In this document: positions 1,958 to 24,160 of the stretch, in pieces | How positions within the stretch are numbered: the stretch's first letter is position 1 | Layout: each line of letters starts with the position of its first letter | Virus record (IMG/VR): IMGVR_UViG_2923292180_000002 | DNA from: a virus | Taxonomy: Duplodnaviria > Heunggongvirae > Uroviricota > Caudoviricetes | Length of the DNA stretch: 30,131 bases | Strand: one strand, 5' to 3' | Position numbers and translations under genes: made by a program | The notes under the pieces: generated by a model | What the model was told of the DNA's origin: nothing | The model's input: only the letters and a program-made list of their open reading frames with translations | Database searches by the model: none

Positions 1958-4405
1958 TTAACCGTCATGCATCATGCTGGCACGGGCGCGCGCACGTTTA
2001 TCCCGCTCGTATTTTTCGAGCGCATCCTGTAACTGGCGGTCAAGCTGTGTCCCCGGCGCAGTACCACCCGTCAGGCTGATGTGATATTCGTTTTTACTCT
2101 GGTCCACATAAGAGCGGCCAGCCGGTGCCGTGACCGGCTGATAAGCCTGATAGCCTGCATAAGAGCTGGTCGCCGGAATATAACCACCGCTGCCATACGT
2201 GGCGGCTTGAGTTCTGGCGGCGGTCTGGTCAAGTGTGTCTGACTCTTTGTTGATAACACCGAGTTTTTCCAGTACCCAGTCAATACCGCTGCGCAGTTTG
2301 TTGAACGCATTAAGCGGCAGCATCAGCGCGTCAGCCAGTGCCTGCCCGAACATGACCCCCGTGTCACGGCAACGGTTCAGGGTATCCTGAGTGGCTTTGA
2401 CCGGGGCAATCAGGTTTTTAAACCACTGCCACGCGGCCTGTAACTTTTCACCCAGCCAGTCAAACACCGGCTTAAGTGGCGTGAACAGTTCCCCCACCGG
2501 CGCAAATGCCACTTTCAGCCCTTCAACCACACCGCCAAAGAATGCGCTGACAGGCTCCCAGTATTTACGGATAAGCAACGCCCCGGCGACAATTGCGGCC
2601 ACCACGACCACAACCGGCCAGCTAATAGCCCCGATGGCGGTCATAACAGCACTGCCAACCGTCGTGAAGACTGCCCCCATTGCGCCTGCTGCCGCGATGA
2701 TGGCATTGATGCCGGTGATAACCGGCCAGGCTACGAGGCCAATGGCACCGATGATGCCAGTAAGCGCCAGCGCGCCACCGGCAATGATGCCGATGGTTGA
2801 CGCCAGTGATTTGTTTTTCTGGATCCAGCCGTCGAGTTTTAACACATACTTTGTGGCCGTCTGCGTGAGCTTACGCAGCGCGCCTTCCTGCTGGTCAAAC
2901 AGGTCAGTCCCCACCGCCTCATAAGCGGACTGAAACTCCTTAAAGTCACCGCCCAGGTTGTCCTGCATGATATTTACCAGCTCGGCGGTCTTCCCGTCCG
3001 AGGCTTTAAACGCAGCGGTCAGTTTGTCCAGCTTTCCGGTTGAGGCGGCAGTCATCAGCACGGCGGCGGCTGAGCTGGCCTCCTCCCCGAAAATGGTTTT
3101 CATGTATTCAGCCTGCTGGGCAGTACCGAGCCGGTTTTTCTCAAAACTGGCCTGCATTTCTTTCAGAATGGTAAATACTGGCCGGGTGTTTCCCTTGCTG
3201 TCTGAGGTTTTCACACCAAGCTCTTTCAGTGCATCCCATGCTTTTCCCGTCGGTGCCTGCAGACGGCTTAACACGGCACGGCTTCCCGTCCCCGCCATTG
3301 AACCGGTAATTTTTGCATCATGCAGCGCCCCGACCATTGCGGCGGTTTCTTCAATGCTGACACCGGCATTTTTTGCCACAGGTGCGGCATAGGTCAGCGC
3401 ATCGCTCATACCGTCAAAATCGGCGGCGGTTTTGTTCATCGTCATGGAGAGAACATCCCCGATATGAGCGACCTTATCGTTTGAAAGCTGAAAGGCGGAT
3501 TTCATCCCCATCAGCAGGGCGGCGTTTTCTTCCATCGTGCGGCGGTTCGCCAGCGCCATATTCAGCGTGACCGGCGTTGCCGCCTGAATGGCATCAACAT
3601 CCCCACCCGCTTTCGCGATGATTATCTGTGCACCGGCCGCATCATCCGCCGAGGCGGCGGTATTGTCACCGAGCTGGCGCGCCTGTTTGCGTAGTGCGGT
3701 CATTTCGGCGGAGTCTTTTGCCACTCCGAGCACGGCCTGCAATTCTGAGTTTTTCTGCGCAAACTCATAACCGGGCATCAGCAACTTAACTCCGGCCATC
3801 GTTCCCGCCGCCGCAATCCCCACACCGGCAGCGCCCACTGAGGCCATATTTCCGGCCAGTTCCTTTCCGGCCTGATAACGCTGTTTTACTGCGTTAAGTT
3901 TTGCCTGTTGTGCACTGACACGCGCCAGTGCGTCACGCTGACGGTTAAGCTGTGCGGTGGTTTCACTGATACGGTTTTTCAGTCCCTGCTCATCATGTGC
4001 AAGATTGCGGGTATTAATTCCCACAGCGGCCAGTTCCCGCTGCTGGCGTTTAACGGAATCCGTCAGGCGGTTATATTTCGCCTGTAAGTCCTCCGCCGCA
4101 CGCTTTGCGGATTCCAGCACTTTCGCCTGAGCACGTGTCGGACGTTCGGTATTTTTAAACTGTGTGGCAAGGGCTTCGGCCTCCTGCCGAGCCTTTTCAA
4201 GTGCATGACCAGTCACGGCAAGCTGTGCACTGGTCTTGCGGAATCCCTCAATACGGGATGCCTGACCGTTCAGCTCGCGCAGTGATTTTTGTGTTTCCCG
4301 GATATCCCCCGACAGCGATTTGCTCGCTGTGCGGATGGATTTAAACGGGCGGGATGCCTGGTCAACAGCCCTGAGCAATACCTGTAATTTTACATTGTTA
4401 CTCAT
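1958..4405 (-). CDS. T: Tail tape measure protein T
   Basis: 815-aa ORF with a coiled-coil N-terminus, Ala/Gly-rich hydrophobic central segments and C-terminal region, typical of a tape measure; located downstream of E/E'. Confidence 0.9.
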   Translation of the reverse strand: MSNNVKLQVLLRAVDQASRPFKSIRTASKSLSGDIRETQKSLRELNGQASRIEGFRKTSAQLAVTGHALEKARQEAEALATQFKNTERPTRAQAKVLESAKRAAEDLQAKYNRLTDSVKRQQRELAAVGINTRNLAHDEQGLKNRISETTAQLNRQRDALARVSAQQAKLNAVKQRYQAGKELAGNMASVGAAGVGIAAAGTMAGVKLLMPGYEFAQKNSELQAVLGVAKDSAEMTALRKQARQLGDNTAASADDAAGAQIIIAKAGGDVDAIQAATPVTLNMALANRRTMEENAALLMGMKSAFQLSNDKVAHIGDVLSMTMNKTAADFDGMSDALTYAAPVAKNAGVSIEETAAMVGALHDAKITGSMAGTGSRAVLSRLQAPTGKAWDALKELGVKTSDSKGNTRPVFTILKEMQASFEKNRLGTAQQAEYMKTIFGEEASSAAAVLMTAASTGKLDKLTAAFKASDGKTAELVNIMQDNLGGDFKEFQSAYEAVGTDLFDQQEGALRKLTQTATKYVLKLDGWIQKNKSLASTIGIIAGGALALTGIIGAIGLVAWPVITGINAIIAAAGAMGAVFTTVGSAVMTAIGAISWPVVVVVAAIVAGALLIRKYWEPVSAFFGGVVEGLKVAFAPVGELFTPLKPVFDWLGEKLQAAWQWFKNLIAPVKATQDTLNRCRDTGVMFGQALADALMLPLNAFNKLRSGIDWVLEKLGVINKESDTLDQTAARTQAATYGSGGYIPATSSYAGYQAYQPVTAPAGRSYVDQSKNEYHISLTGGTAPGTQLDRQLQDALEKYERDKRARARASMMHDG

Positions 4406-4881: not shown

Positions 4882-5400
4882 TCACAGGCCGATATTGCGG
4901 CGGTGTTGCTCCAGCCGGTCGACGCCGTTCACCTTCTCAATCATGTTGATGGTGTCAATTTCGACCAGCTCCTTACCGTCCATCGTCAGCCGGAAATAGG
5001 TGCAGACCACGGAGATTTTCGACTCGGTGTCTTCTCCCTGTTTACCCTCGCCGGTGTCGATTTCTTTCTGACGTCCACGCATGACCACTTCAACGGCCAC
5101 CGTTTCGCCGGTATCGTCACGCTGGTAAGAGCCTGCAAAACGAATCGGCACAGCATCCACACCGGTTGCGGCGTAAAGCTCCCAGATAACCGAATCCGGG
5201 AAGCCCCCGAGCGACCACTCCATTGACAGCGCATCGTCATCAAGGCCGAGGTCTACCGGTGCGCTGCCGTTCATCCCCGCACCGCGATAGTTTTCAAGCT
5301 TACGGGTCAGTTTTGGCAGCGTGACGGACTTCGCGACGCCCTGATAGCTGTAGCCGTTCAGAAAGACGTTCATTAACTTGAGTTTGCGCGGCATTGCCAT
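4882..5400 (-). CDS. FII: Tail tube protein FII
   Basis: 172-aa ORF, P2 gpFII size and position after FI. Confidence 0.88.
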   Translation of the reverse strand: MAMPRKLKLMNVFLNGYSYQGVAKSVTLPKLTRKLENYRGAGMNGSAPVDLGLDDDALSMEWSLGGFPDSVIWELYAATGVDAVPIRFAGSYQRDDTGETVAVEVVMRGRQKEIDTGEGKQGEDTESKISVVCTYFRLTMDGKELVEIDTINMIEKVNGVDRLEQHRRNIGL

Positions 5401-5412
5401 CGGTCAGGCTCC

Positions 5413-6603
5413 TTAATTGCTGTTAACCGAGGTGACCAGATTTGCCAGGTATTTATCGGTAATACGCTGGCGCAGGGTCAGGTTTTCAAGAGGAGGCACC
5501 GGTGTATAGTCGTAGTCGATATACAGTTTTCCGGCCTTGAGGGTTTCCGCATCGTTGGATTCTTCGCTGAACCAGCATGAGCCATCCACGATATAGCCGT
5601 TTGTTTTCAGCTCACGGAATTTGGCATTGATGCCGTCAACGATGTCGCGAATCAGCGTTGCGGTGATGGGCTTGTCCACCGCCCACATGTGCGCCTCAGC
5701 TATCGTGTCGGCCAGCACCTGCGCGGTACGGGTGTAGTTTTCAAAGAGGAACAGCGGGTCATCAGAGCAGGTACGGTTACCCCAGAATCGGAAACCGTCG
5801 CGGCGAATCAGCGTAGTGACACCTGACTCGTTAAGCAGGTCAGCATCGGTGCCGGACTCCTGCAAATCCCAGAATACAGATGCGCTGATGCCGGTAACAC
5901 CGTTTACCCCGACGTTGGACAGCGTTTTATGCCAGCCCTGCTCCTGGTCGATTTTAGCGCGCAGACCCAGCGCACGGGCGGTGGCATACGCGGTGGCGGT
6001 GGTACTGGTGACCGTATCCCATGCGAGGAAATCCGGCCAGATGACCATCAGCTCACGCTGGCTGAAATTCTGGCGGTAGGCTTTCACCTCGGAAATGGTC
6101 TTACAGCCCCATGCGCTGATATATCCGAAAGCACGCAGCTTCTGACAGACTGATGCCAGTGCAACAGCCACCTCTTTGGTATCCAGTCCCGGCACGCCGA
6201 GAATACGCGGTTTAACACCGGTTACCGACTCCGCCGCCAGCAGGGCTTTCAGTCCGGTGTACTGACCGTTTTCGTCGGTGGTGCCGATGATATTGGAAAC
6301 GGTCTGCGCGAGTTTCGTTTCCTCGTCGTCGCCGGTGCCGTCTTCCACACGTACGACAACGGTGACCGGTTTTGACTGGTCGGCGATGGCCTGCAACGAT
6401 GCCGCCAGCGTGCCTTTTTTACCGGCCTTTGCAATTGCACTCTGCACATTGGTAATCAGCACCGGTTTATTGAGGGGGAAGGTTTCCGCATCCGCATCGC
6501 TGGCCGTGCAGACCATGCCGACAATGGCAGTGGATACGGTGGAAATGACGCGGGTGCCGTCGTTAATCTCCAGCACCTGCACGCCGTGATGATAGTCACT
6601 CAT
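5413..6603 (-). CDS. FI: Contractile tail sheath protein FI
   Basis: 396-aa ORF, P2 gpFI size; first gene of the FI-FII-E-T-U-D operon. Confidence 0.9.
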   Translation of the reverse strand: MSDYHHGVQVLEINDGTRVISTVSTAIVGMVCTASDADAETFPLNKPVLITNVQSAIAKAGKKGTLAASLQAIADQSKPVTVVVRVEDGTGDDEETKLAQTVSNIIGTTDENGQYTGLKALLAAESVTGVKPRILGVPGLDTKEVAVALASVCQKLRAFGYISAWGCKTISEVKAYRQNFSQRELMVIWPDFLAWDTVTSTTATAYATARALGLRAKIDQEQGWHKTLSNVGVNGVTGISASVFWDLQESGTDADLLNESGVTTLIRRDGFRFWGNRTCSDDPLFLFENYTRTAQVLADTIAEAHMWAVDKPITATLIRDIVDGINAKFRELKTNGYIVDGSCWFSEESNDAETLKAGKLYIDYDYTPVPPLENLTLRQRITDKYLANLVTSVNSN

Positions 6604-6662
6604 CCGTTTAACTCCGTGGTTAATGGGTGAGTGGTATTTTCAGTTGTGCCGGAGATGTCAGG

Positions 6663-6845
6663 CTATTTGTCCCGGTTGGCTAAGGGATGACACAATTTAT
6701 TCTTTGTCGCTGATGAGGGAAATTTTTTATAGAGCGTGGACAGGCCAATATCAAAAATCAGCTCACATCCTGCGCACTCCAGCGCGTTACGCTGCAATTC
6801 CGTATTCTGGTCATTTGTTGACACGCGGACATAGCCAATAAGCAT
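6663..6845 (-). pseudogene. Truncated DNA invertase (Pin/Gin/Hin serine recombinase family), N-terminal remnant only
   Basis: 60-codon ORF begins MLIGYVRVSTNDQNTELQRNALECAGCELIF, the conserved N-terminus of Din-family invertases including the catalytic Ser region (VRVST). After about residue 31 the sequence is unrelated, and only 60 bp separate it from the FI start, so the catalytic and HTH domains are absent. Confidence 0.72.
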
Positions 6846-6902
6846 GATGGATCCCCTGAATAAAAACCGGGGATGATGCCAGTTAGCCGTAATCTCTGCA
6901 TT

Positions 6903-6926
6903 TTCTTAAACGTTGGTTTGGGAGAA
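6903..6926. repeat. Left crossover (gix/hix-like) site of invertible tail fibre segment
   Basis: ttcttaaacgttggtttgggagaa: an imperfect palindrome of the AAACC-NN-GGTTT type, whose core cttctcccaaaccaa recurs in inverted orientation at 8758..8772. Confidence 0.6.
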
Positions 6927-7247
6927 GCGGCAAAACGGAATGTGGGAACAGGGGAAAATCAGATACCTGATATGTCAGCTTATTCATCAGGATCTGGCTG
7001 GCAAAAATTGCCTGATGGTTCAATTGAACAGTGGGGAAGAATTAATTTCCCGAATAACGCCGCGGCGGTATCTACAAATGTGACTTTCACCATTCCTTTT
7101 ACGCAGGAGCCAGACGTAGTGATTGTATATGACGGCGGTTTTGGTGGTGGGAATATGTGGGGCGCAACTAACTGGACGAAAACAGGTTTCGTTGCTCATT
7201 GTAACTATGGCTTTGAAGGTGGAGCCTTCTACGCGAAAGGGCGTTAA
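6903..7247 (+). CDS. Alternative tail fibre C-terminal cassette (H variable part, currently silent orientation)
   Basis: Plus-strand frame reads FLNVGLGEAAKRNVGTGENQIPDMS... to TAA at 7245..7247. It shares the in-frame GLGE junction with H at the crossover site. The ORF-track start at 6873 lies before the crossover site and is probably not a real start. Confidence 0.6.
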   Translation, partial: FLNVGLGEAAKRNVGTGENQIPDMSAYSSGSGWQKLPDGSIEQWGRINFPNNAAAVSTNVTFTIPFTQEPDVVIVYDGGFGGGNMWGATNWTKTGFVAHCNYGFEGGAFYAKGR

Positions 7248-7249
7248 TT

Positions 7250-7690
7250 ATGAAATATTTGTATGTTGATAATCTGGCGTACCCTTATGCCCTCCAGTCT
7301 GTTTACGCTGCAAAAGGCCAATGGCCCGAAGGTAAAGGCGTGGATATAGACGAAGCTATTTTCAGGGAATATTTCCATGATACGCCGCCTGACGGTAAGT
7401 ACAGAATTACCGGAGACGATGGAATGCCAGCATGGGCAGATGTTCCACCGCCAACACGTGAAGAACAAATTGCATCAGCCGAAACTAAAAAGCAGCAATT
7501 GATTAATCAGGCCAACGATTATATGAACAGTAGACAATGGGCTGGTAAAGCGGCTATTGGTCGTCTGAAAGGTGAGGAACTGGCGCAATATAATTTGTGG
7601 CTGGATTATCTGGACGCACTGGAGCTGGTCGATACTTCCAGTGCACCAGATATTGAATGGCCTACTCCTCCGGCAGTTCAGGCCAGATGA
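7250..7690 (+). CDS. Tail fibre assembly protein (alternative chaperone, Tfa family)
   Basis: 146-aa ORF starting 2 nt after the cassette stop. Its C-terminus ...LWLDYLDALELVDTSSAPDIEWPTPP parallels the G C-terminus ...AVLDYIDAVTATDISTAPDVIWPELP. Convergent with G and overlapping its 3' end. Confidence 0.8.
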   Translation: MKYLYVDNLAYPYALQSVYAAKGQWPEGKGVDIDEAIFREYFHDTPPDGKYRITGDDGMPAWADVPPPTREEQIASAETKKQQLINQANDYMNSRQWAGKAAIGRLKGEELAQYNLWLDYLDALELVDTSSAPDIEWPTPPAVQAR

Positions 7691-8264
7691 CATCCGGCGC
7701 GGTGCTGATATCTGTTGCCGTCACCGCGTCAATGTAATCCAGCACAGCGTTAAGCCGGGTTGTTTCTGCCTGCGTCAGTTTCCGCCCGGCCTGTAATTTC
7801 AGTTGAATCAGACTAATGGAAGCCATTGCAGTATCAATCAGTGACTGACGCTGTGCTTCTGCCGCGTCTACTGCGGCGCGATGCTGTGCCTCAGTATCGG
7901 TCACCCATTTCTCACCATCCCATTTATCGTATGGCGTTAATGGGGCGATAGTGGTTGTATTTTCGGGGTAATCACCCGGAGTTGTGATTTCTTTGGTGTC
8001 TCCCGTTTCGGTGTTATAGACGATTTCACCGCGATGGTCTGGCACATATTCCCATGAGTTTAAATCTGCCGAACGGCAGATTGCATAACCAGCCTTATGT
8101 ATACCAGGTTCATCCAGACAGGAATATGCCGGGATACCAACACCAACGGCAAGATATTCATTTGAAGTGGAAATATATTCCCGAGTTTCACCATCATAGC
8201 TATAGACGGTAATATTCCCCGCCTTCGTGGCAATAAGCTCGCTATTTAATACAGCGTTATCCAT
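7662..8264 (-). CDS. G: Tail fibre assembly protein G
   Basis: 200-aa ORF directly downstream of H with a conserved Tfa C-terminal motif. Confidence 0.85.
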   Translation of the reverse strand: MDNAVLNSELIATKAGNITVYSYDGETREYISTSNEYLAVGVGIPAYSCLDEPGIHKAGYAICRSADLNSWEYVPDHRGEIVYNTETGDTKEITTPGDYPENTTTIAPLTPYDKWDGEKWVTDTEAQHRAAVDAAEAQRQSLIDTAMASISLIQLKLQAGRKLTQAETTRLNAVLDYIDAVTATDISTAPDVIWPELPEE

Positions 8265-9598
8265 TATGCAGCTCTCACAATATAATTAAATGACGTATTA
8301 CGTGGTCGTACTGATATCCATGCACTATAAAAACCGTCTTCTGCTGTTCTCTGCGTTCCCGTAATGGAGTTATCAGACGAAGCTGGAACATAGTTACTGC
8401 TGTCGCCAGCTTTAGAATTAGCAGGTATCCCGCTTGTTTGTACTTTATCGGCGGAAGCAAATGCTATCCCCACCTTGACAGAGGTTGTTGTATCAACCCC
8501 GTAATAATCCTGTAACGCTGTACGAATAAAAGTTGCATCCTGACCACTGAGTAGTGATCGTCCACTGTCTACACCGCGTCCATCATCCCAGCCACGAATA
8601 AACTCACCGCGTAAATCAGGCAATTTATTTGTCGGGTAAGCCTTTGCCAGTTCCGGGTATTCTTCAGCAGAAAAAGCTGCACCATTGCATTTCAACCAGC
8701 CTGTCGGTGGTGTAGCTGAAGGCCACGGAACAGGCACACCAACCGGTAATGCTGAACCTTCTCCCAAACCAAGGTATGCGAGAAGACCAGCCACATCCTT
8801 TCCACTCAAATGAGTCAGCGTCTCATCCAGTGGCTGCTTACCTGACAGCGCATTGTTAATGGTGGTACTGAATTTCGGGTCATTGTTAATGGCTGCGGCA
8901 ATTTCTTTCAGTGTGTCCAGCGTGGCTGGCGCACCGTTAATCAGAGCGGTAATAGCGGCCTGAACAAACGCAGTGGTCGCAATCCGCGTGGTGTTATTTC
9001 CTGCGGCAGGCGTCGGCGCTTTTGGTTCTCCGGTAAATGTCGGATTATGTTTCTGCGCATACTGGGTATGAGGATCCTGTGCGGCAATGTGGTTTCTCAT
9101 CTGGTCATCCACATACAGCCTTAATTCCAGGACTTCATCATCCACGTATTTACGGGTCGCCAGTACCACCGACGGGTCGATTTTCAGCGTGATAGCTTCG
9201 GTATTCGTGACAACCAGAATCATGCGGATAGTCTGGGTACGACCACTGCCTTCCTGCAACTGCGGTTTGTACGTTTCCGGGCAGTTCGCCACCGCAATGA
9301 GTACGCCTTCATCATCATAAAGCCCAATCTCACGGATCCAGAATCCGCCCTCGTTCTCAGGGATGATTTGCTCCGCAATAATCTGGCTCTGGTTGTTCGG
9401 GTCAACACTCAGAAGATTCAGCGGCGCGATGCGTTTCTGGTTAATCAGTTTTGTCTGTGCCGGGTCTGGTGTCGGCAAGACACCATTCGCATCACCAACG
9501 GCCATTTGCGTCAGATTCAGCTTACTGCCGAGCATCGTCGCGTTAGCCAGCCGTGCTGCGCCCTGATTAGTCAGAATGGCGTAGTATTTCACTGTCAT
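8264..9598 (-). CDS. H: Tail fibre protein H (constant N-terminus plus currently expressed variable C-terminus with tail-collar-like domain)
   Basis: 444-aa ORF with a P2 gpH-like N-terminus (MTVKYYAILTNQGAARLANA...). The C-terminal part carries a phage tail collar-like motif (PWPSATPPTGWLKCNGAAFSAEEYPELAKAY...LPDLRGEFIRGWD). Confidence 0.88.
   Translation of the reverse strand: MTVKYYAILTNQGAARLANATMLGSKLNLTQMAVGDANGVLPTPDPAQTKLINQKRIAPLNLLSVDPNNQSQIIAEQIIPENEGGFWIREIGLYDDEGVLIAVANCPETYKPQLQEGSGRTQTIRMILVVTNTEAITLKIDPSVVLATRKYVDDEVLELRLYVDDQMRNHIAAQDPHTQYAQKHNPTFTGEPKAPTPAAGNNTTRIATTAFVQAAITALINGAPATLDTLKEIAAAINNDPKFSTTINNALSGKQPLDETLTHLSGKDVAGLLAYLGLGEGSALPVGVPVPWPSATPPTGWLKCNGAAFSAEEYPELAKAYPTNKLPDLRGEFIRGWDDGRGVDSGRSLLSGQDATFIRTALQDYYGVDTTTSVKVGIAFASADKVQTSGIPANSKAGDSSNYVPASSDNSITGTQRTAEDGFYSAWISVRPRNTSFNYIVRAA
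8759..8784. repeat. Right crossover (gix/hix-like) site inside H
   Basis: ttctcccaaaccaaggtatgcgagaa; its first 14 nt are the reverse complement of 6913..6926 (with the preceding c, the shared core is 15 bp, 8758..8772). Lies in the H reading frame at ...LAYLGLGEG... Confidence 0.55.
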
Positions 9599-10206
9599 GC
9601 GTTTACTCTCAGGTTATCAATTAAATGAATGGCCGAGGCCGGGAAATAATCCCCTCCGACAATAATGGCCTCCGGGGTGTAGGGATAAACCGTCAGGGCG
9701 TCACCGTGATAGCATCCCGCACCGGCAAAAATGTTGCCGGTTGTACTTAAACTGATAGCCAGTCCCGTCAGATGGCGGCTTGCCGGTTTTGCATCAGCAA
9801 CTAGGCGCTCCAGCTCCTGATACATTTCTTCGGTAATACCCTGCTCAAGCACGCCAACAACGATACGGAACGTCCCCGGCTCCTCGTTGAGCTGCCACCA
9901 CTCCCTCACCTCAATCAGATAGCCGAGCGGCTCCACCACACGCCGGATTGCGCCTATAGTGCCCTTATGGCAGTGAATGAAATACGCATCGCGGATAACA
10001 GCGCGTTTTGTCGCTTCCGGCCATTTATCATCCCAGCGGTCAACCGAAAATGACCACGCCAGCCACGGCAGCAGATTTGCCGGGCAGGTGTCCGGGTTCC
10101 ACAGCTCACGAATACTGACCGGCGTTTTTTCAATTTCCGCACAGGCTTTTGCGGCGGCAACTTCAAGCAGTGATGAGCCGGTCGGCAGCAGTCGCGAATC
10201 ACTCAT
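9595..10206 (-). CDS. I: Baseplate assembly protein I
   Basis: 203-aa ORF, synteny between J and H; P2 gpI-like N-terminus. The ORF track start may be slightly long. Confidence 0.82.
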   Translation of the reverse strand: MSDSRLLPTGSSLLEVAAAKACAEIEKTPVSIRELWNPDTCPANLLPWLAWSFSVDRWDDKWPEATKRAVIRDAYFIHCHKGTIGAIRRVVEPLGYLIEVREWWQLNEEPGTFRIVVGVLEQGITEEMYQELERLVADAKPASRHLTGLAISLSTTGNIFAGAGCYHGDALTVYPYTPEAIIVGGDYFPASAIHLIDNLRVNA

Positions 10207-11107
10207 CCGAGCCTCCGGTCACGACGCTGTATTCGGTACAGAAAGACGCCTGCGTACTGTTGAGCACGATGTCAGCCAGCGGTGCAGCCAGTTCGACACG
10301 CTGCACACCTTCCACATGCAAAGCGGCATAAATGGCAGACAGACGGATATCGCGCCCCAGCCGGTGCTGTGCCGTGATATACGCTTCCAGTTTTTTCACG
10401 GCGGCAGCGCGGATGGGTTCGCTTTCGGGACCAGGGTAAAGGTAAAGCGTGGCGTTTATCTGGTATTCAACGATGGCGGCAGACTGCACGGTCACGCGGT
10501 CGGCCACCGGCCTGACGTCCTCGCCATTCAGGGCGTTACGCACCACGGCCAGCAGGTCTTCGGATGCGACACCGTTATTTTCACGTGACAGCACAGAGAT
10601 AGTGACGCAGGCCGGAGACGGACTGGTGACAGAAATATCCGCGACACGCCCGTCGGCACTGCGGCCATGATACTGATAGGCACCCACCGACCCGGCGACG
10701 CTTAAACCTTCAAACGCCTGCTGAATACGCAGACGATAATCGGTGTCAGACTCCATCACTGCCGGTGTCGGCGGGATGGTCGAATCATCTGCCGGGGTGA
10801 TAGTCAGGCGCGTGGTGTTGTAATTGGCACCAATCACATCAAGGTCATTACCGGCGGCACAGGCCAGCATCACCGCCCGTGCGGCCTCATTCACACGCTG
10901 ACGCCAGATAAGCTCACGATAAGCATTTTCCTCCAGCAGTTTGACGAGAGGCTCAGATTCCAGCGTCAGGGTACGGGCGACCGCCTCCTGCTGGTCTTCC
11001 GGGTAAAGGGAAATCAGTGTCGCCTTGCGTTCGGCAAGAATGGTTTCAAAGTCCAGCTCCTCGACCACATCCGGTGCGGGTAGCTGGTTCAGGTCGATAA
11101 TCGGCAT
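10199..11107 (-). CDS. J: Baseplate assembly protein J
   Basis: 302-aa ORF, P2 gpJ length and position. Confidence 0.88.
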   Translation of the reverse strand: MPIIDLNQLPAPDVVEELDFETILAERKATLISLYPEDQQEAVARTLTLESEPLVKLLEENAYRELIWRQRVNEAARAVMLACAAGNDLDVIGANYNTTRLTITPADDSTIPPTPAVMESDTDYRLRIQQAFEGLSVAGSVGAYQYHGRSADGRVADISVTSPSPACVTISVLSRENNGVASEDLLAVVRNALNGEDVRPVADRVTVQSAAIVEYQINATLYLYPGPESEPIRAAAVKKLEAYITAQHRLGRDIRLSAIYAALHVEGVQRVELAAPLADIVLNSTQASFCTEYSVVTGGSDE

Positions 11108-18358: not shown

Positions 18359-18531
18359 TGTCAGGAGTCCTGAATAGTGATTAGAGGAGTCACATGTCGG
18401 CATCAGTTTCCCGACGATGCGCATCCTCCGCCATCAGTCCCGGATGGCTTATCACTGACACAACAGCACCTTAGCGAATCGCGGGGCGCGACTCAGTAGC
18501 CTTGCCGTGTATTCATCACGGCGAGGTATTC
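18359..18531. promoter_or_regulatory. Divergent late promoter region (P_O leftward, P_P rightward), expected Ogr-dependent
   Basis: 173-bp gap between the divergent O and P starts. Contains an imperfect dyad GTCGG-N10-CCGAC at 18396..18415. I could not find a clean TGT-N12-ACA element by eye, so exact promoter positions are not assigned. Confidence 0.4.
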
Positions 18532-20304
18532 ATGACCATCACCACAGACACCACTCTTTTACACGACCCGCGTCGTCAGGCGGCGCTGCTGTACTGGCAG
18601 GGATTTTCCGTGCCGCAGATTGCCGCCATGTTGCAGATGAAACGCCCGACGGTGCAGAGCTGGAAACAGCGCGACGGCTGGGACAGCGTTGCCCCCATCA
18701 GCCGTGTCGAAATGAGTCTGGAAGCGCGGCTGACCCAGCTCATCATCAAACCGCAGAAAACCGGCGGTGACTTCAAGGAAATTGACCTGCTCGGACGCCA
18801 GATTGAACGACTGGCACGGGTAAACCGTTACAGTCAGACCGGCAACGAGGCAGACCTTAATCCGAACGTCGCTAACCGCAACAAAGGCGGGCGTCGCAAA
18901 CCGAAAAAGAATTTTTTCAGTGACGAGGCCATCGAAAAGCTGGAGCAGATTTTCTTTGAGCAGTCTTTCGAATATCAGTTGCACTGGTATCGCGCCGGGC
19001 TTGAGCACCGCATCCGCGATATCCTGAAATCCCGCCAGATTGGCGCGACGTTTTATTTTTCCCGCGAGGCGCTGCTGCGTGCCCTGAAAACCGGTCATAA
19101 CCAGATTTTTCTGTCGGCCAGTAAAACGCAGGCGTATGTGTTCCGCGAATACATCATCGCCTTTGCCCGTCTGGTTGACGTTGACCTGACCGGTGACCCG
19201 ATTGTCCTGGGCAATAACGGCGCAAAACTGATTTTTCTCGGCACCAACTCCAACACCGCGCAGAGCCATAACGGCGACCTGTACGTCGACGAGATTTTCT
19301 GGATCCCGAATTTTCAGGTACTGCGTAAGGTGGCATCAGGTATGGCCTCACAGAGTCACCTGCGCTCGACCTATTTCTCCACCCCGTCCACGCTGGCGCA
19401 CGACGCCTACCCGTTCTGGTCAGGTGAACTGTTCAACCGGGGACGCGCCAGCGCCGCCGAACGCGTGGAAATCGACGTCAGTCATAACGCCCTTGCCGGT
19501 GGGCTTCTCTGTGCGGACGGCCAGTGGCGGCAGATTGTCACCATTGAGGACGCCCTGAAAGGTGGCTGCACGCTGTTCGACATTGAGCAGCTCAAACGTG
19601 AAAACAGCGCCGACGATTTTAAAAACCTGTTCATGTGTGAATTTGTTGACGACAAGGCGTCGGTGTTTCCGTTCGAGGAGCTGCAACGCTGCATGGTCGA
19701 CACGCTGGAAGAATGGGAAGACTATGCGCCATTTGCCGCCAATCCGTTCGGCTCCCGCCCGGTATGGATTGGTTACGACCCGTCACACCGTGGCGACAGC
19801 GCCGGATGCGTGGTGCTGGCACCGCCGGTGGTGGCCGGTGGCAAATTCAGAATACTTGAGCGTCACCAGTGGAAAGGCATGGACTTTGCCACCCAGGCGG
19901 AATCCATCTGCAAACTCACCGAAAAATACAACGTCGAATACATCGGTATTGATGCCACCGGCCTCGGTGTCGGCGTGTTCCAGCTCGTGCGCTCGTTCTA
20001 TCCCGCCGCGCGCGATATCCGCTACACACCGGAAATGAAAACCGCAATGGTGCTCAAGGCAAAAGACGTTATCCGCCGTGGCTGTCTGGAATACGACGTC
20101 AGCGCCACCGACATCACCAGCTCGTTTATGGCTATCCGCAAGACCATGACCAGCAGCGGGCGCAGCGCCACCTATGAGGCCAGCCGCAGCGAGGAAGCCA
20201 GCCACGCCGACCTCGCCTGGGCGACCATGCACGCCCTGTTAAATGAGCCACTCACCGCCGGTATCAGCACCCCGCTGACATCCACCATTCTGGAGTTTTA
20301 CTGA
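18532..20304 (+). CDS. P: Terminase ATPase (large) subunit P
   Basis: Start at MTITTDTTLLHDPRRQAALLYWQGFSVPQIAAMLQ gives 590 aa (P2 gpP length); stop overlaps the Q start. Confidence 0.88.
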   Translation: MTITTDTTLLHDPRRQAALLYWQGFSVPQIAAMLQMKRPTVQSWKQRDGWDSVAPISRVEMSLEARLTQLIIKPQKTGGDFKEIDLLGRQIERLARVNRYSQTGNEADLNPNVANRNKGGRRKPKKNFFSDEAIEKLEQIFFEQSFEYQLHWYRAGLEHRIRDILKSRQIGATFYFSREALLRALKTGHNQIFLSASKTQAYVFREYIIAFARLVDVDLTGDPIVLGNNGAKLIFLGTNSNTAQSHNGDLYVDEIFWIPNFQVLRKVASGMASQSHLRSTYFSTPSTLAHDAYPFWSGELFNRGRASAAERVEIDVSHNALAGGLLCADGQWRQIVTIEDALKGGCTLFDIEQLKRENSADDFKNLFMCEFVDDKASVFPFEELQRCMVDTLEEWEDYAPFAANPFGSRPVWIGYDPSHRGDSAGCVVLAPPVVAGGKFRILERHQWKGMDFATQAESICKLTEKYNVEYIGIDATGLGVGVFQLVRSFYPAARDIRYTPEMKTAMVLKAKDVIRRGCLEYDVSATDITSSFMAIRKTMTSSGRSATYEASRSEEASHADLAWATMHALLNEPLTAGISTPLTSTILEFY

Positions 20305-21338
20305 TGAGCAAGAAAAAAGGGAAAACACCGCAACCTGCGGCAAAAAAAATGACCGCCAGCGCCCCGAAAATGGAGGCATTCACCTTTGGTGAGCCGGTGC
20401 CGGTACTCGACCGCCGTGACATTCTGGATTACGTCGAATGCATCAGTAACGGCAGATGGTATGAGCCACCGGTCAGCTTTACCGGTCTGGCAAAAAGCCT
20501 GCGTGCTGCCGTGCATCACAGCTCCCCGATTTACGTCAAACGCAATATTCTGGCCTCGACATTTATCCCGCATCCGTGGCTTTCCCAGCAGGATTTCAGC
20601 CGCTTTGTGCTGGATTTTCTGGTGTTCGGCAATGCGTTTCTGGAAAAGCGTTACAGCACCACCGGCAAGGTCATCAGACTGGAAACCTCACCGGCAAAAT
20701 ATACCCGCCGTGGCGTGGAGGAGGATGTTTACTGGTGGGTGCCTTCCTTCAACGAGCCGACAGCCTTCGCACCTGGCTCCGTGTTTCATCTGCTGGAGCC
20801 GGATATTAATCAGGAGCTGTACGGCCTGCCGGAATATCTCAGCGCCCTTAACTCTGCCTGGCTGAATGAGTCAGCCACGCTGTTCCGCCGCAAGTATTAC
20901 GAAAACGGCGCTCATGCCGGATACATCATGTACGTTACCGATGCCGTGCAGGATCGCAACGATATCGAAATGCTTCGCGAAAACATGGTGAAGTCGAAAG
21001 GCCGCAACAACTTTAAAAACCTGTTTCTCTATGCCCCGCAGGGGAAAGCCGACGGCATTAAAATTATCCCGCTCAGTGAAGTGGCGACGAAGGACGATTT
21101 TTTTAATATCAAAAAAGCCAGCGCCGCTGACCTGCTGGACGCACACCGCATCCCCTTTCAGTTGATGGGCGGCAAGCCGGAGAACGTCGGGTCACTGGGA
21201 GATATTGAGAAAGTGGCAAAGGTCTTTGTCCGCAATGAACTTATCCCGTTACAGGACAGGATTCGGGAAATAAACGGCTGGCTCGGTCAGGAGGTCATCC
21301 GCTTTAAAAACTACTCACTGGACACTGACAACGGCTGA
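20304..21338 (+). CDS. Q: Portal vertex protein Q
   Basis: 344-aa ORF, P2 gpQ size, immediately upstream of cos. Confidence 0.9.
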   Translation: MSKKKGKTPQPAAKKMTASAPKMEAFTFGEPVPVLDRRDILDYVECISNGRWYEPPVSFTGLAKSLRAAVHHSSPIYVKRNILASTFIPHPWLSQQDFSRFVLDFLVFGNAFLEKRYSTTGKVIRLETSPAKYTRRGVEEDVYWWVPSFNEPTAFAPGSVFHLLEPDINQELYGLPEYLSALNSAWLNESATLFRRKYYENGAHAGYIMYVTDAVQDRNDIEMLRENMVKSKGRNNFKNLFLYAPQGKADGIKIIPLSEVATKDDFFNIKKASAADLLDAHRIPFQLMGGKPENVGSLGDIEKVAKVFVRNELIPLQDRIREINGWLGQEVIRFKNYSLDTDNG

Positions 21339-21682: not shown

Positions 21683-22837
21683 TTACGAATTCAAACTCAA
21701 CTCTGTTTGACTCTTTTGAACATTAATAGTTTTACCAGTAAGGACATCCAAAACCCCTGCAGCAACAGCCTGCGCCAATTTACAAGGCACAGCATTCCCT
21801 ATCTGACGCCAAATTGACGAATTTTTCCCCACAAAGACATAATTACTCGGGAATGTTTGAATCAAAAGAGCCTCATCTATCGTTAGTCGACGTAAACGAC
21901 TAGGTACATCGTGCATATCTTTTGGCTCACCACCATTCATTAGATGATTATGATAAGTCTCAACATAACTTGTTGAGCCATCATAAAGGTGTTCTTCATC
22001 AATAATTGGTGTCCTATTCCCCCCCATAGAAGCAGCTATAGTTGAAGCATACCCATTCGGGTTAATTGGTCTTCCCTGCCCGTTAAACATCATTCCCGCG
22101 TAAGGTGACTTCCGTAATACTGGCTTAGCAGCATTTGTAATCCTTGCATTACAGACTCTTGAATTGTTTGGATTACCCGCTCGCCCTAAAGGCCGAATAA
22201 TCTCACCAACTGTTGGCGAAAGATATTGGTATTTTTTTATCGCCGCCTCAACTCGTTTCACATCATTTTCGGAACGAAACCCTATAAAAAACATACGTTC
22301 CCTATTCTGAGGAACGCCAAAATCTTTAGAATTCAGCACCAGCAAGGCTGAACGATAGCCTGACTTTTCAGCCATCTTAAACAGTTCACACCTAACTGGT
22401 TCAAATTTGGACAACTGTGCTAAAGCCTTAACATTCTCCATAACAAAGCATTCTGGTTGAATTATATCCACCGCCCGCATGAATGACATAACCAGCTTAC
22501 TACGTGGATCATGAGCGTCCATTTTCCCTGCCACAGAAAATCCTTGGCATGGAGGCCCACCAAAAACACAACCTATATTTTTCAGCCCAGACAATTCACT
22601 TAGCATCTCATCAATATCACCACAAAAAACAGGTGATTCATGATTAAGCTTAAATGTATCACATGCATCCTTATCTATATCATTGGCCCAAACTGTTCGG
22701 AACCCGGCATTAGAGAAACCGACATCCATCCCTCCTGCCCCAGTAAATAAGCTCACAGCTGAAATTTTGTTCACTTCTTTAGCACCAATTATTCGATTTT
22801 GGAATAAAACCAATGATAGGTAAGGATCGACACACAA
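21683..22837 (-). CDS. DNA (cytosine-5)-methyltransferase
   Basis: 384-aa ORF with C5-MTase motifs in order: FTGAGGMDVGF (I), GGPPCQGFS (IV, catalytic PC), ENV (VI), QNRERMFFIG (VIII), a variable target-recognition region, and GNAVP (X). The annotated start is a TTG; an in-frame GTG 15 codons downstream is an alternative. Region is AT-rich compared with the phage backbone. Confidence 0.85.
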   Translation of the reverse strand: MCVDPYLSLVLFQNRIIGAKEVNKISAVSLFTGAGGMDVGFSNAGFRTVWANDIDKDACDTFKLNHESPVFCGDIDEMLSELSGLKNIGCVFGGPPCQGFSVAGKMDAHDPRSKLVMSFMRAVDIIQPECFVMENVKALAQLSKFEPVRCELFKMAEKSGYRSALLVLNSKDFGVPQNRERMFFIGFRSENDVKRVEAAIKKYQYLSPTVGEIIRPLGRAGNPNNSRVCNARITNAAKPVLRKSPYAGMMFNGQGRPINPNGYASTIAASMGGNRTPIIDEEHLYDGSTSYVETYHNHLMNGGEPKDMHDVPSRLRRLTIDEALLIQTFPSNYVFVGKNSSIWRQIGNAVPCKLAQAVAAGVLDVLTGKTINVQKSQTELSLNS

Positions 22838-22857
22838 TCAATCACCTTCTAAACCAC

Positions 22858-23127
22858 ATGGCAAAACGACAACCAACTATACATGATCATAGATACAGGT
22901 GCCTAGTCCAGCTTCTCACCAAACTACGCAAAGAAGCTTCTCTTTCGCAGTCAGAATTGGCCATTTTTCTAGGATTATCACAATCAGATATATCTAAAAT
23001 CGAAAGCTTTGAAAGGCGATTAGATGCTTTAGAACTATTTGAATTATTAGAGGTGGTTGCAAGCCGATTAGGTCTACCAATGGATATCTTACTAAAGGAC
23101 ACCTATGAAAGTATTAGTAAATCATGA
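22858..23127 (+). CDS. HTH (XRE-family) regulator, putative R-M controller (C) protein
   Basis: Helix-turn-helix LSQSELAIFLGLSQSDISKIE. Divergent from the methyltransferase and overlapping the start of the downstream nuclease-like gene by 23 nt, the classic C-R arrangement. Start could instead be the upstream ATG at 22813. Confidence 0.6.
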   Translation: MAKRQPTIHDHRYRCLVQLLTKLRKEASLSQSELAIFLGLSQSDISKIESFERRLDALELFELLEVVASRLGLPMDILLKDTYESISKS

Positions 23128-24160
23128 GCAAGCCTATAATGTAATTATAAATGCAATCAACGATGCAAAAAAATTAACTGATTACAAAACAAATAATCAA
23201 TGGGTCTCCATTCAAAATGTAATTTTAGGCACCCACCTTACATACAGATATATACTTATTACTGGTTTACTTGCAAAAGCAACAGACCCTAGAGTAAACC
23301 CTCTGGCTTTACAAGCTAATGCCCCCGTAGACGGAGCCTATGATGCAAGAAGTTTATGTCATTCGGTAATAGTAGGCAAAGTAGAAGGCCCATTTTTAGA
23401 GGGTAAGTTAGGCGCATCAAATGAGCCATTTCTAAATAAACCAGCTCGTTACATGCTCCACTCCTCTGATAACCCTGTGCGCAGAGGAAATGATAAGGTT
23501 TTACAACAACTTTCAATTGATATATTACATGCAGCAACAACCCAAACCTTAGCTTATGAAATGCTTGTTATTGCATTATATTTTACCCTACAGCGAACCA
23601 ATAGAGTTATAACGCCGAACTCAATTAATTTTGATTTCCATAAGATTATTTATAATATTATATCTCATCCTTGTGATGGAGAAACATGCGCGATTGCTGC
23701 CGCAATTTCGTTACATTTATTAGGTGAACAAAGAGGATGGATAATAAAAGCACATCCCGTCAATCAGGCCGGTAGCTCCTCAAAAGAGATACTGGACATA
23801 GATGTATATCATGATGATATAGTTTTCCTTTCTATAGAAGTGAAAGACAAACCATTCAATTATCAAGATGTTAATCACGCCGTTTCAAAAGCATCTGCAT
23901 CCGGGATTTCAAAAGTTATCTTCCTTAAAGGGCCAAGAGCAACAAACTTAGATATTGATGAGTCTCTTGCGATTGAGAACGCTGCGACAAAAGGTGTTTC
24001 ACTAAGCTTTAGTGACGTCATGACATTCACAACAACATGTTATGCGTTATCGCCACTATTAAGTAATGACAGAATAATAGATTTCATAAATAACACTTTA
24101 AAAGACATCAGAGCTAAAGATAGCACTATAGAATACATACAATCCATATTTAAAAATTAA
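23105..24160 (+). CDS. Putative restriction endonuclease / PD-(D/E)xK-like nuclease (uncharacterised family)
   Basis: 351-aa ORF, strongly AT-rich, with a candidate PD-(D/E)xK motif in ILDIDVYHDDIVFLSIEVKDK (D...E-V-K). Linked to the C-like gene and the divergent C5-MTase. No family recognised by eye. Confidence 0.5.
   Translation: MKVLVNHEQAYNVIINAINDAKKLTDYKTNNQWVSIQNVILGTHLTYRYILITGLLAKATDPRVNPLALQANAPVDGAYDARSLCHSVIVGKVEGPFLEGKLGASNEPFLNKPARYMLHSSDNPVRRGNDKVLQQLSIDILHAATTQTLAYEMLVIALYFTLQRTNRVITPNSINFDFHKIIYNIISHPCDGETCAIAAAISLHLLGEQRGWIIKAHPVNQAGSSSKEILDIDVYHDDIVFLSIEVKDKPFNYQDVNHAVSKASASGISKVIFLKGPRATNLDIDESLAIENAATKGVSLSFSDVMTFTTTCYALSPLLSNDRIIDFINNTLKDIRAKDSTIEYIQSIFKN

Follow-up and report, generated by a model that had tools for sequence, protein, structure and literature searches.

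Results

Two tail-fiber cassettes in a P2-like prophage

The window, that is, the whole 30,131-nucleotide stretch of DNA analyzed here, contains a P2-like (Peduovirus-type) tail-fiber module with the order J - I - H - chaperone ... sheath FI - tube FII, as is evident from the protein domains of this module (Tail_P2_I, 1.1e-55; Phage_tail_fib, 2.7e-62; Caudo_TAP, 4.5e-32; sheath domains and a GPD hub), and the same gene order was found at related loci. Gene H on the minus strand (8264..9598) encodes, in its currently expressed form, a tail fiber of 444 amino acids with a PF12571 domain at residues 1-150 (2.7e-62) and a Collar domain (PF07484) at residues 287-334 (4e-15). Its constant part (8773-9598) lies outside and its variable, Collar-type part (8264-8772) inside an invertible segment of 1,860 bp, which extends from central dinucleotide to central dinucleotide of two crossover sites (6913..8772). 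Residues 276-444 of H are 58% identical to StfE of the Escherichia coli prophage e14, and the stop codon of H overlaps by one base with the start codon of the gene for the tail-fiber assembly chaperone of the expressed cassette (7662..8264, minus strand), a TfaE-like protein of 200 amino acids (PF02413, 4.5e-32) that shares 89% identity with e14 TfaE. The remainder of the segment is occupied on the plus strand by a silent alternative tail-fiber C-terminus of the Gp53-like type (6913..7247; PF21882 at residues 307-375 of the predicted fusion, 2.7e-7), which lacks its own N-terminal part, and by the silent chaperone gene of this alternative cassette (7250..7690), coding for 146 amino acids (PF02413, 3.7e-32), the last 78 of which are 73% identical to e14 TfaP. 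The open reading frame of 124 codons starting at 6873 is an artefact of ORF calling. Both chaperones belong to the Caudo_TAP family (PF02413, about 4e-32), and their genes are convergent with 3' ends overlapping by 29 bp. The ORFs and Pfam domains thus bear out two proposals of a preliminary description of this DNA, namely that two cassettes, each with a fiber C-terminus and its own chaperone, are arranged head-to-head, and that the expressed fiber tip is tail-collar-like while the silent one is unrelated to it. Since the Collar-type and Gp53-like tips carry unrelated Pfam domains, they presumably confer two receptor specificities. Searches against Rfam at the gathering threshold gave no match in the window, and promoter-like and terminator-like sites in 6400-9800 were not more frequent than in shuffled sequences.

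When the segment 6913..8772 was inverted in silico, both crossover sites and both reading frames were preserved. The residues G-L-G-E are encoded in frame at both junctions, and the present H and the flipped form, H', have exactly 280 N-terminal residues in common, as anticipated by the preliminary description, which had placed the fusion point after about 280 residues. The predicted H' protein comprises 386 amino acids and reads AAKRNVGTGENQ...GGAFYAKGR past residue 280, in agreement with the preliminary description.

Crossover sites

The left, invertase-proximal and pix-like crossover site (6901..6926) has the structure TTTTCTTAAACG-TT-GGTTTGGGAGAA with its central dinucleotide at 6913-6914, and the right site (8759..8784), which is located within gene H, the structure TTCTCCCAAACC-AA-GGTATGCGAGAA with its central dinucleotide at 8771-8772. 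Each is therefore a 26-bp site built as 12 + 2 + 12, and the two have identical inner half-sites and the same central dinucleotide in inverted orientation; within a site, the symmetry of the half-sites as judged by eye is 8/12 on the left and 10/12 on the right around the TT/AA center. In a repeat search, the arms 6901-6927 and 8758-8784 formed the top inverted repeat of the region (27 nt, 81% complementary). The exact 14-mer TTCTCCCAAACCAA occurs in only two copies in the window, at 6913-6926 on the minus and 8759-8772 on the plus strand, while shuffled sequence gave a mean of 0.20 matches with up to 2 mismatches and two such matches in 1 of 100 shuffles. Moreover, when the whole window was scored against an idealized 26-bp site, only 6901-6926 and 8759-8784 reached at least 17/26 matches. 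The inverted repeats described earlier at the junctions are hence confirmed, except that the left site is two bases longer than the 6903-6926 originally assigned to it. A third crossover site, which would permit multiple inversions as in p15B and one EPEC prophage, was not found in the window.

Both sites resemble experimentally defined sites of the Din family. The left site matches the pin-proximal e14 site of E. coli K-12 at 25/26 positions and includes the published e14 inverted repeat TTGGTTTGGGAGAAG (PMC12529663), and the right site has 23/26 positions in common with the distal e14 site and 21/26 with P1 cixR, whereas both sites agree with Mu gix at only 17-18/26 positions. The presence of the e14 P-segment repeat and the close match to the e14 sites indicate that the system is of the Pin/e14 type within the Din family. 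The 26-bp sequence of the right site was found in identical form at the H-side breakpoint of every related locus examined.

An internally deleted invertase gene and a retained enhancer-homologous stretch

Beside the segment lies the remnant of a Pin-type serine invertase gene (6663..6845, minus strand), which the preliminary description had left undescribed. Alignment to the intact genes of two related loci (L002 and L003) showed that this remnant of 60 codons arose by an in-frame internal deletion of 411 bp in a gene of 197 codons, so that residues 29-165 of 197 are missing. The remnant retains roughly the first 30 residues with the GYVRVST motif but lacks the remainder of the catalytic domain and the greater part of the helix-turn-helix; accordingly, only a Resolvase match of 33 residues was obtained, whereas intact homologues gave full Resolvase and HTH_7 matches. 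The identical allele is annotated in RefSeq as an incomplete recombinase pseudogene. As delimited by pairwise protein alignment and a repeat search, the deletion junction (6751..6764, minus strand) coincides with the single remaining copy of a 14-bp direct repeat, GAGCTGATTTTTGA, which intact genes carry twice, at gene nt 82-95 and 493-506. Homologous loci possess intact invertase genes of 188-197 amino acids, and the intact alleles share 85% identity with PinE, 78% with Cin and 78% with Gin. In contrast, no functional serine invertase of about 185-200 amino acids with a resolvase domain and a C-terminal HTH adjoins the segment in the window, nor is another invertase gene visible in its 30 kb. 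To judge from its sequence, the window's copy is thus without a functional cis invertase, its own gene having been destroyed by the deletion. Consequently, this copy would be unable to flip alone, and an invertase acting in trans, which had previously been envisaged merely as a test, becomes a requirement.

The deletion left wholly intact the stretch upstream of it (6756..6827, minus strand; gene nt 19-90) that is homologous to the recombinational enhancer, for which the feature annotated in the P1 record (cin nt 19-90) served as reference. This stretch matches P1 at 57/72 and e14 pinE at 60/72 positions. It contains two G...C 15-mers of Fis-core outline (6810-6824 and 6761-6775), and the 15-mer at gene nt 71-85 is identical to that of P1. 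The center of the 15-mer nearer to the left site is about 96 bp away from the center of this site, which fits the distance of about 100 bp between the 65-bp Hin enhancer and hixL (PMC3798978). From this homology and spacing we infer that 6756..6827 could function as an enhancer.

Both orientations occur in related prophages

The alternative orientation, which had been predicted for this segment, exists in nature. In a public contig (L009) a stretch of 1,863 bp corresponding to 6910-8772, i.e., the segment and parts of both sites, is flipped at 99.95% identity, and the H protein called in this contig is 100% identical to the predicted fusion of 386 amino acids. L009 carries the same deleted invertase as the window, from which it diverges by 1.8% on the sheath side and by no more than 0.3% on the H side and in the segment. 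Over 6400-9700, complete E. coli genomes gave at best a mosaic match of 93-96% identity, and the closest locus found (L008) showed 98.6% identity. Similarly, the assembly of a single strain, E. coli O25b:H4, contains in both orientations a related prophage whose 26-bp sites are identical to those of the window: between the chromosome and a separate 29.5-kb record the flanks are identical save two gaps in the lower-quality record, and a segment of 1,863 bp is inverted with breakpoints within the two 26-bp sites; the invertase of this prophage is intact. In a further pair of loci (L010 and L011) the inner half-sites, which differ from each other, have exchanged places while the outer half-sites have not moved, a comparison that places the exchange point at the central dinucleotide. 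These observations, together with those on 11 identical genomes described below, come from other records than the window's own DNA.

The 411-bp deletion allele was present in 24 of 5,426 complete E. coli genomes. The deleted alleles represent essentially one haplotype (323 nt with 0-6 differences) and share silent changes at two positions of the remaining 5' part, gene nt 18 and 42, which are absent from the six intact invertase genes compared, pointing to a single origin of the deletion. A sister prophage with this deletion was found in 11 genomes, 7 with one orientation and 4 with the other, which showed 100% identity across 6,460 bp after in-silico re-flipping of the segment. Since these genomes differ in orientation alone, flipping appears to go on in the absence of a cis invertase, and the invertases acting on prophages with the deleted allele are presumably provided in trans. 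However, near-clonal genomes with the deleted allele did not differ in orientation within their set (three SRY isolates; 1000C-3, DETEC-S560 and ES11), suggesting that flipping without the cis gene may be infrequent.

Discussion

The features of this locus are best explained, with a probability of roughly 0.88, by a Din-family (Hin/Gin/Cin/Pin) inversion switch of the e14 P-segment type, which resides in the tail-fiber module of a complete-looking P2-like prophage and for which the enzyme would have to be supplied by others. The N-terminal 280 residues of H, which are constant and encoded outside the segment, would attach the fiber to the baseplate, while the segment would provide two mirror-image cassettes, each with a receptor-binding C-terminus and, behind it, a Tfa folding chaperone of its own. 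A serine invertase would cut both 26-bp sites at the central AA/TT and exchange the strands, thereby joining the constant part of H to either C-terminus and resulting in a Collar-type fiber of 444 amino acids, the present state, or a Gp53-like fiber of 386 amino acids. In the window's copy, in which both sites, the enhancer-homologous stretch and both cassettes are intact, flipping would be possible through a related invertase from another prophage in the same cell.

The most serious competing explanation, which we regard as possible but doubtful, is that this copy is a frozen relic that has been locked in the Collar orientation since the deletion and carries the silent cassette as decaying dead weight. 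The non-functional cis invertase, the uniform orientation among near-clonal genomes with the deleted allele and the lack of a visible invertase gene elsewhere in the 30-kb window would agree with such a relic. However, the silent cassette shows no decay, with the fusion protein being 100% identical to the product of an expressed H gene elsewhere, and both sites and the enhancer-homologous stretch have remained intact. Moreover, the sister prophage with the same deletion occurs in both orientations without a single substitution in 6,460 bp, and P-type segments are known to flip in trans (PMC12529663; PMC4134206). It is considerably less probable that the two orientations predate the deletion, either because independent deletions recurred at the 14-bp repeats or because the deleted allele was moved by homologous recombination. 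Although an event flanked by 14-bp direct repeats is of a type able to recur, and although P2-like prophages are mosaic, as illustrated by the uneven divergence between the window and L009, the single, nearly invariant 323-nt haplotype with its common silent changes indicates a single origin of the deletion. In addition, the identity of the 11 genomes over 6,460 bp in all but orientation excludes separate histories and imported flanks, and the inner half-sites have been exchanged precisely at the central dinucleotide, as is characteristic of a serine invertase.

On the preferred reading, the segment presumably determines the host range of the virion. That it instead benefits the bacterial host through a chimeric tail-fiber fragment blocking the adsorption of other phages, as is reported for the e14 P segment with StfE2 against T2, seems improbable, even more so than the previous alternative. 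Such a role is suggested by the close homology of the cassette to e14 StfE/TfaE and by the finding that inversion of the e14 P segment driven by PinQ protects against T2 (PMC12529663), but H is full length in the window and has the baseplate-binding N-terminal domain (PF12571, 2.7e-62), and the prophage appears complete, with integrase, replication, terminase, portal, baseplate, sheath, tube and tape measure genes, which makes virion host range the simpler function. Finally, an inverted repeat arising by chance, or an inversion due to general (RecA) recombination in place of a site-specific enzyme, which might be considered because the exact repeat measures just 14-15 nt and 1 of 100 shuffles also gave two matches with up to 2 mismatches, was rejected as having next to no probability, since the repeat is identical to e14 sites in experimental use, both copies lie in frame at the border of constant and variable fiber parts in a 12-2-12 site organization, natural inversions break at the central dinucleotide, and 11 genomes are identical but for orientation.

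Earlier publications have described tail-fiber inversion in prophages of E. coli, among them a case with a truncated invertase for which action in trans was inferred, and the principle, proposed for prophage Phi4 of EC958 and shown for PinQ on e14, will not surprise the specialist. Segments that exchange the tip of the tail fiber by inversion are a well-known kind, and what sets apart the present copy in a P2-like E. coli prophage is the loss of its own invertase, which makes it dependent on one from elsewhere. The in-frame 411-bp deletion allele, with its retained enhancer-homologous stretch and its occurrence in 24 complete genomes, was not found in the literature searched. On balance, it seems probable that this allele represents an "orphan switch" of single origin, in which the enzyme was lost while both sites and the putative enhancer were precisely spared, and which spread through P2-like prophages with several cassette sets and still flips by means of the invertases of co-resident prophages. 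If this is true, host-range switching of these phages depends on the other mobile elements of the lysogen. The 11 genomes in which orientation is the sole difference over 6.46 kb provide a clean natural example of an invertible host-range cassette outliving its own invertase, and it becomes testable whether host-range switching of these P2-like phages is under the control of invertases from co-resident prophages. For annotation, our analysis implies that two annotated features, the 124-codon "gp53-like domain-containing protein" ORF and the "incomplete recombinase", belong to a single switch. The segment may also cause breaks or duplications in assemblies of such strains.

Comparison with known inversion systems

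The preliminary description had likened the locus to the Mu G segment. This holds for the logic that the window has in common with Mu G/Gin and P1 C/Cin, in which the order Sc | Sv-U / U'-S'v is combined with 26-bp sites at the border of constant and variable parts and with an invertase gene just outside the segment; the P1 annotation puts the enhancer in the first 90 nt of this gene. However, the fiber encoded in the window is of the P2 H type (PF12571) and not of the S type of Mu and P1, the central dinucleotide is AA/TT compared to GA/TC in Mu gix, and the invertase gene is directed away from its site, while P1 cin is directed towards it. With neither gix sites with a GA/TC center nor Mu S/U-type genes, the segment is Mu-G-like in logic but not in sequence, and is no Mu G segment in the strict sense.

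The closest relative is instead the e14 P segment with PinE (stfP/tfaP, tfaE/stfE and pinE of K-12), which has the same layout of a constant fiber part, two convergent cassettes and the 5' end of the invertase gene beside one site, the same AA central dinucleotide, and a similar size (published as 1,797 bp vs. 1,860 bp in the window). In contrast to the window with its full-length H, e14 is a defective lambdoid remnant with fragmentary fiber genes; furthermore, the silent Gp53-like C-terminus of the window gave no BLASTP match to e14 StfP, and its invertase is internally deleted, unlike that of e14. The P segment of e14 is also flipped in trans by PinQ of prophage Qin (PMC12529663). Likewise, prophages Phi1, Phi2 and Phi4 of the ST131 strain EC958 have 26-bp crossover sites and alternative-orientation contigs, although the sequence of these sites is unlike that in the window, and for Phi4, which has a truncated invertase, both orientations were observed in PacBio reads and ascribed to trans action (PMC4134206). 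Coexisting orientations of tail-fiber segments were also demonstrated by sequencing and PCR in P2-like prophages of EPEC E2348/69 (PMC4272514). Deposited Peduovirus genomes, for example pro483, the P2-like phage of O157:H43 T22 and MET_P1_103_31, are annotated with the same set of genes as the window, i.e., a tail fiber, two tail-fiber assembly proteins, a DNA invertase and the tail sheath.

Prophage setting and crossover sites

A P2-like prophage of the E. coli type makes up the window. On its minus strand are gene D for the hub (301-1464), the genes for the tape measure (1958-4405), the tube (4882-5400) and the sheath (5413-6603), tail fibre gene H (8264-9598), genes I and J of the baseplate (9595-11107) and replication gene A (24254-26566). 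The terminase (18502-20304) and portal (20304-21338) genes are on the plus strand. An integrase gene reaches the window's end. The cargo between the portal gene and gene A (21683-24160) resembles a type II restriction-modification system, consisting of a minus-strand C5-cytosine methyltransferase gene (21683-22837; PF00145, 1.3e-66) and, on the plus strand, a small ORF resembling an HTH controller (22813-23127; weak PADLOC matches) and a SacI-family endonuclease gene (23105-24160; PF09566, 1.9e-76; PADLOC REase_II, 2e-252).

The invertible segment is located between H and the sheath gene. The top inverted repeat of the region 6500-9700 has its arms at 6901-6927 and 8758-8784 (27 nt, 81% complementary), and the 14-mer TTCTCCCAAACCAA occurs in two exact copies in the window, one per strand, compared with a mean of 0.20 matches (at most two mismatches) expected in shuffled sequence. 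These results bear out the inverted crossover sites proposed at both junctions in the preliminary description, whose coordinates hold except that the left site starts at 6901 instead of 6903. Both sites have a 12-2-12 form, TTTTCTTAAACG-TT-GGTTTGGGAGAA on the left (6901-6926) and TTCTCCCAAACC-AA-GGTATGCGAGAA on the right (8759-8784), and their inner halves are identical. A scan of the 30 kb for positions that agree with an idealised 26-bp site at 17/26 or better found none besides these two. A terminator-like hairpin with a T-run lies at 6865-6884 (minus strand), between the left site and the start codon of an invertase remnant; terminator-like sites were no commoner than in shuffled sequence, and this hairpin is a pattern match only.

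Alternative tail fibre tips

In silico inversion of 6913-8772 left both sites intact and yielded a protein of 386 aa in which H residues 1-280 continue into AAKRNVGTGENQ...GGAFYAKGR, with G-L-G-E encoded at both junctions, as had been anticipated for an in-frame fusion of the constant part of H to the alternative C-terminus. Pfam likewise corroborated the proposal of two unrelated tips, each with its own chaperone: a Collar domain was found in the expressed C-terminus and Gp53-like_C in the silent one, each followed by a Caudo_TAP chaperone whose start codon overlaps, or sits close behind, the fibre stop codon. The domains of the two tips are unrelated, which makes two receptor specificities likely. 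At their 3' ends the convergent chaperone genes share 29 bp (7662-7690), and an 18-nt inverted repeat (83% complementary) is present at 7600-7617 and 7726-7743, where both genes encode a conserved LDY(L/I)DA.

In the mechanism that we propose, transcription of H would start outside the segment, and the cassette facing H would provide the receptor-binding tip and the matching chaperone. A Pin-family invertase, together with Fis on an enhancer, would pair the two sites and carry out the exchange at AA/TT; for the window's copy, the enzyme would have to come from elsewhere in the cell.

A deleted invertase gene with a retained enhancer-homologous stretch

The ORF at 6663-6845 (minus strand) opens with MLIGYVRVSTNDQNTELQRNALECAGCELIF, the start of a Pin-family invertase, and passes straight to DIGLSTLYKKFP..., where the helix-turn-helix ends. 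Relative to the intact 197-codon genes of two related loci (L002 and L003), residues 29-165 are absent owing to an in-frame deletion of 411 bp between 14-bp direct repeats (gene nt 82-95 and 493-506), and all that Pfam detected of the resolvase domain was a fragment of 33 residues, compared with full Resolvase and HTH_7 domains in intact relatives. The window's own invertase is dead, and no recombinase besides the integrase was found in the window.

In the P1 record the enhancer of Cin-mediated inversion is annotated at cin nt 19-90. When the opening 105 nt of the remnant were aligned with those of cin, gin, pinE and three intact relatives, the whole enhancer-homologous stretch proved to be kept in the remnant (window 6756-6827), where it agrees with P1 at 57/72 and with pinE at 60/72 positions and is the same as P1 in the 15-mer at nt 71-85. 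There are two G...C 15-mers, the nearer of which is centred about 96 bp from the left-site centre; the Hin enhancer spans 65 bp, with a Fis site at either end, about 100 bp from hixL (PMC3798978). We infer from this homology that a working enhancer has probably been retained despite the deletion.

Natural inversion and spread of the deleted allele

Inversion at such segments was observed in nature. In E. coli O25b:H4, where the invertase is intact, a prophage is on record twice, in the chromosome and as a separate entry of 29.5 kb labelled 'extrachromosomal'. The flanks are identical except for two gaps in the lower-quality record, and what differs is the orientation of a 1,863-bp segment that ends, on both sides, within the same two 26-bp sequences as those of the window. 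The EC958 genome paper (PMC4134206) explains extra contigs of this kind as the minority orientation assembled from PacBio data. Over the 9.1 kb compared, the 29.5-kb O25b:H4 record NZ_CP015088.1 repeats the prophage of the chromosome, except that the segment is flipped and a few frameshifts are present, and is probably such an alternative-orientation contig, as in EC958, rather than a separate replicon. In locus L009 the window's segment is present at 99.95% identity but flipped, and the H gene product is exactly the predicted 386-aa fusion. A second flipped pair (L010 and L011), from a sister prophage, has inner half-sites that differ (GGATTTGGAGAA and GGTTTGGGAGAA); since these inner halves are swapped between the two loci while the outer halves are unmoved, the crossover fell on the central dinucleotide, in keeping with what a serine invertase would do.

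Two further records deserve mention. In KE137028.1 (GCA_000408365.1; 3069-3918 of the locus), a prophage with the deleted invertase and an H-side flank 99.96% identical to the window, a run of N extends from directly after the H-side 26-bp site to directly before the invertase-side site, so that the break in the assembly coincides with the invertible segment; the cause may be a sequenced culture of mixed orientation, or simply a repeat problem. The E. coli HKUOPY1 chromosome record (NZ_CP019961.1, 1-2110) begins within a tail-fibre segment, and both sites found there (237 and 2085) carry the H-side outer half GGTATGCGAGAA, which may be due to inversion between two prophages or to an assembly artefact.

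The exact 60-aa remnant is recorded in 988 blocks of a public assembly index, and both orientations are present among the nine remnant loci listed. Between the site and the sheath gene, 17 deletion-bearing sequences have only 0-6 differences in 323 nt, even where the prophage backbones diverge by several per cent, and two silent changes in what is left of the 5' part (gene nt 18 and 42) are common to all deleted alleles, whereas none of six intact invertase genes has them. This near-invariance and these shared changes support a single origin of the deleted allele.

A 60-mer spanning the deletion junction matched 24 of 5,426 complete E. coli genomes, and 20 of the 24 regions were taken for comparison. 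The sister prophage with a single-chaperone segment was found in 14 of these 20 and, with AR_0137 (seen as L011), in 15 of the 24. Once the segment is re-flipped in silico, eleven of these sister prophages, whose genomes come from several countries and hosts, show 100% identity across 6,460 bp; they are divided 7 to 4 in orientation. Since they are identical apart from orientation, the inversion is more recent than any point mutation. It took place in a prophage without its own invertase, and its simplest cause is an invertase acting in trans. One precedent is classical: Gin, Cin, Pin and Hin cross-complement one another. Trans action has further precedents in PinQ on e14 (PMC12529663) and in the truncated Phi4 invertase of EC958 (PMC4134206). 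Within near-clonal isolate sets orientation was uniform, and the flipping rate with the deleted allele may be low.

In the sister prophage (L010/L011, L019-L035) the segment is only about 1.2 kb long with one chaperone gene, which is reversed in the 'short-H' orientation (370-aa H), leaving a fibre tip without a co-oriented chaperone. In one genome (NZ_OZ501671.1, 4629-6460 of the locus) an ISEc12 element (IS21 family) has inserted directly after the sheath gene and so disrupts that copy of the prophage.

Comparison with known inversion systems

Alignment to known sites, suggested as a check in the preliminary description, related the window's sites most closely to e14. In the region taken from E. 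coli K-12, the e14 sites are TTCTCCCAAACC AA CGTTTATGAAAA and TTCTCCCAAACC AA GGTTTTCGAGAG, with which the window's sites agree at 25/26 and 23/26 positions, compared with 21/26 for cixR of P1 and only 17-18/26 for the gix sites of Mu, whose centre is GA/TC. The repeat of the e14 P segment, which PinE and PinQ each invert, was published in 2025 as TTGGTTTGGGAGAAGG / CCTTCTCCCAAACCAA (PMC12529663), and its core is the same as that of the window. Moreover, the window's expressed chaperone shares 89% identity with TfaE, the variable region of its H 58% with StfE, and the C-terminal half of its silent chaperone 73% with TfaP. Thus the earlier comparison with the Mu G segment holds for how the element works but not for its descent, which makes it a P segment housed in a P2-type tail module.

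In Mu, P1, e14 and p15B, tail-fibre inversion by Din invertases is textbook knowledge. Such inversion has been demonstrated by sequencing and PCR in P2-like prophages of EPEC (PMC4272514) and shown in prophages of ST131, among them one whose invertase is truncated and for which action in trans was inferred (PMC4134206), and systematic inversion screens found enrichment of 'phage tail protein I' and 'tail fiber assembly protein' beside inversion targets (PMC9881135). The same gene set is annotated in deposited phage genomes. Our analysis confirms the inversion observation and supports its interpretation, refined to a Pin/e14-type switch with its cis invertase deleted. To this already known type of switch it makes a modest addition, namely a deletion allele that spares the predicted enhancer, and a natural experiment in 11 genomes.
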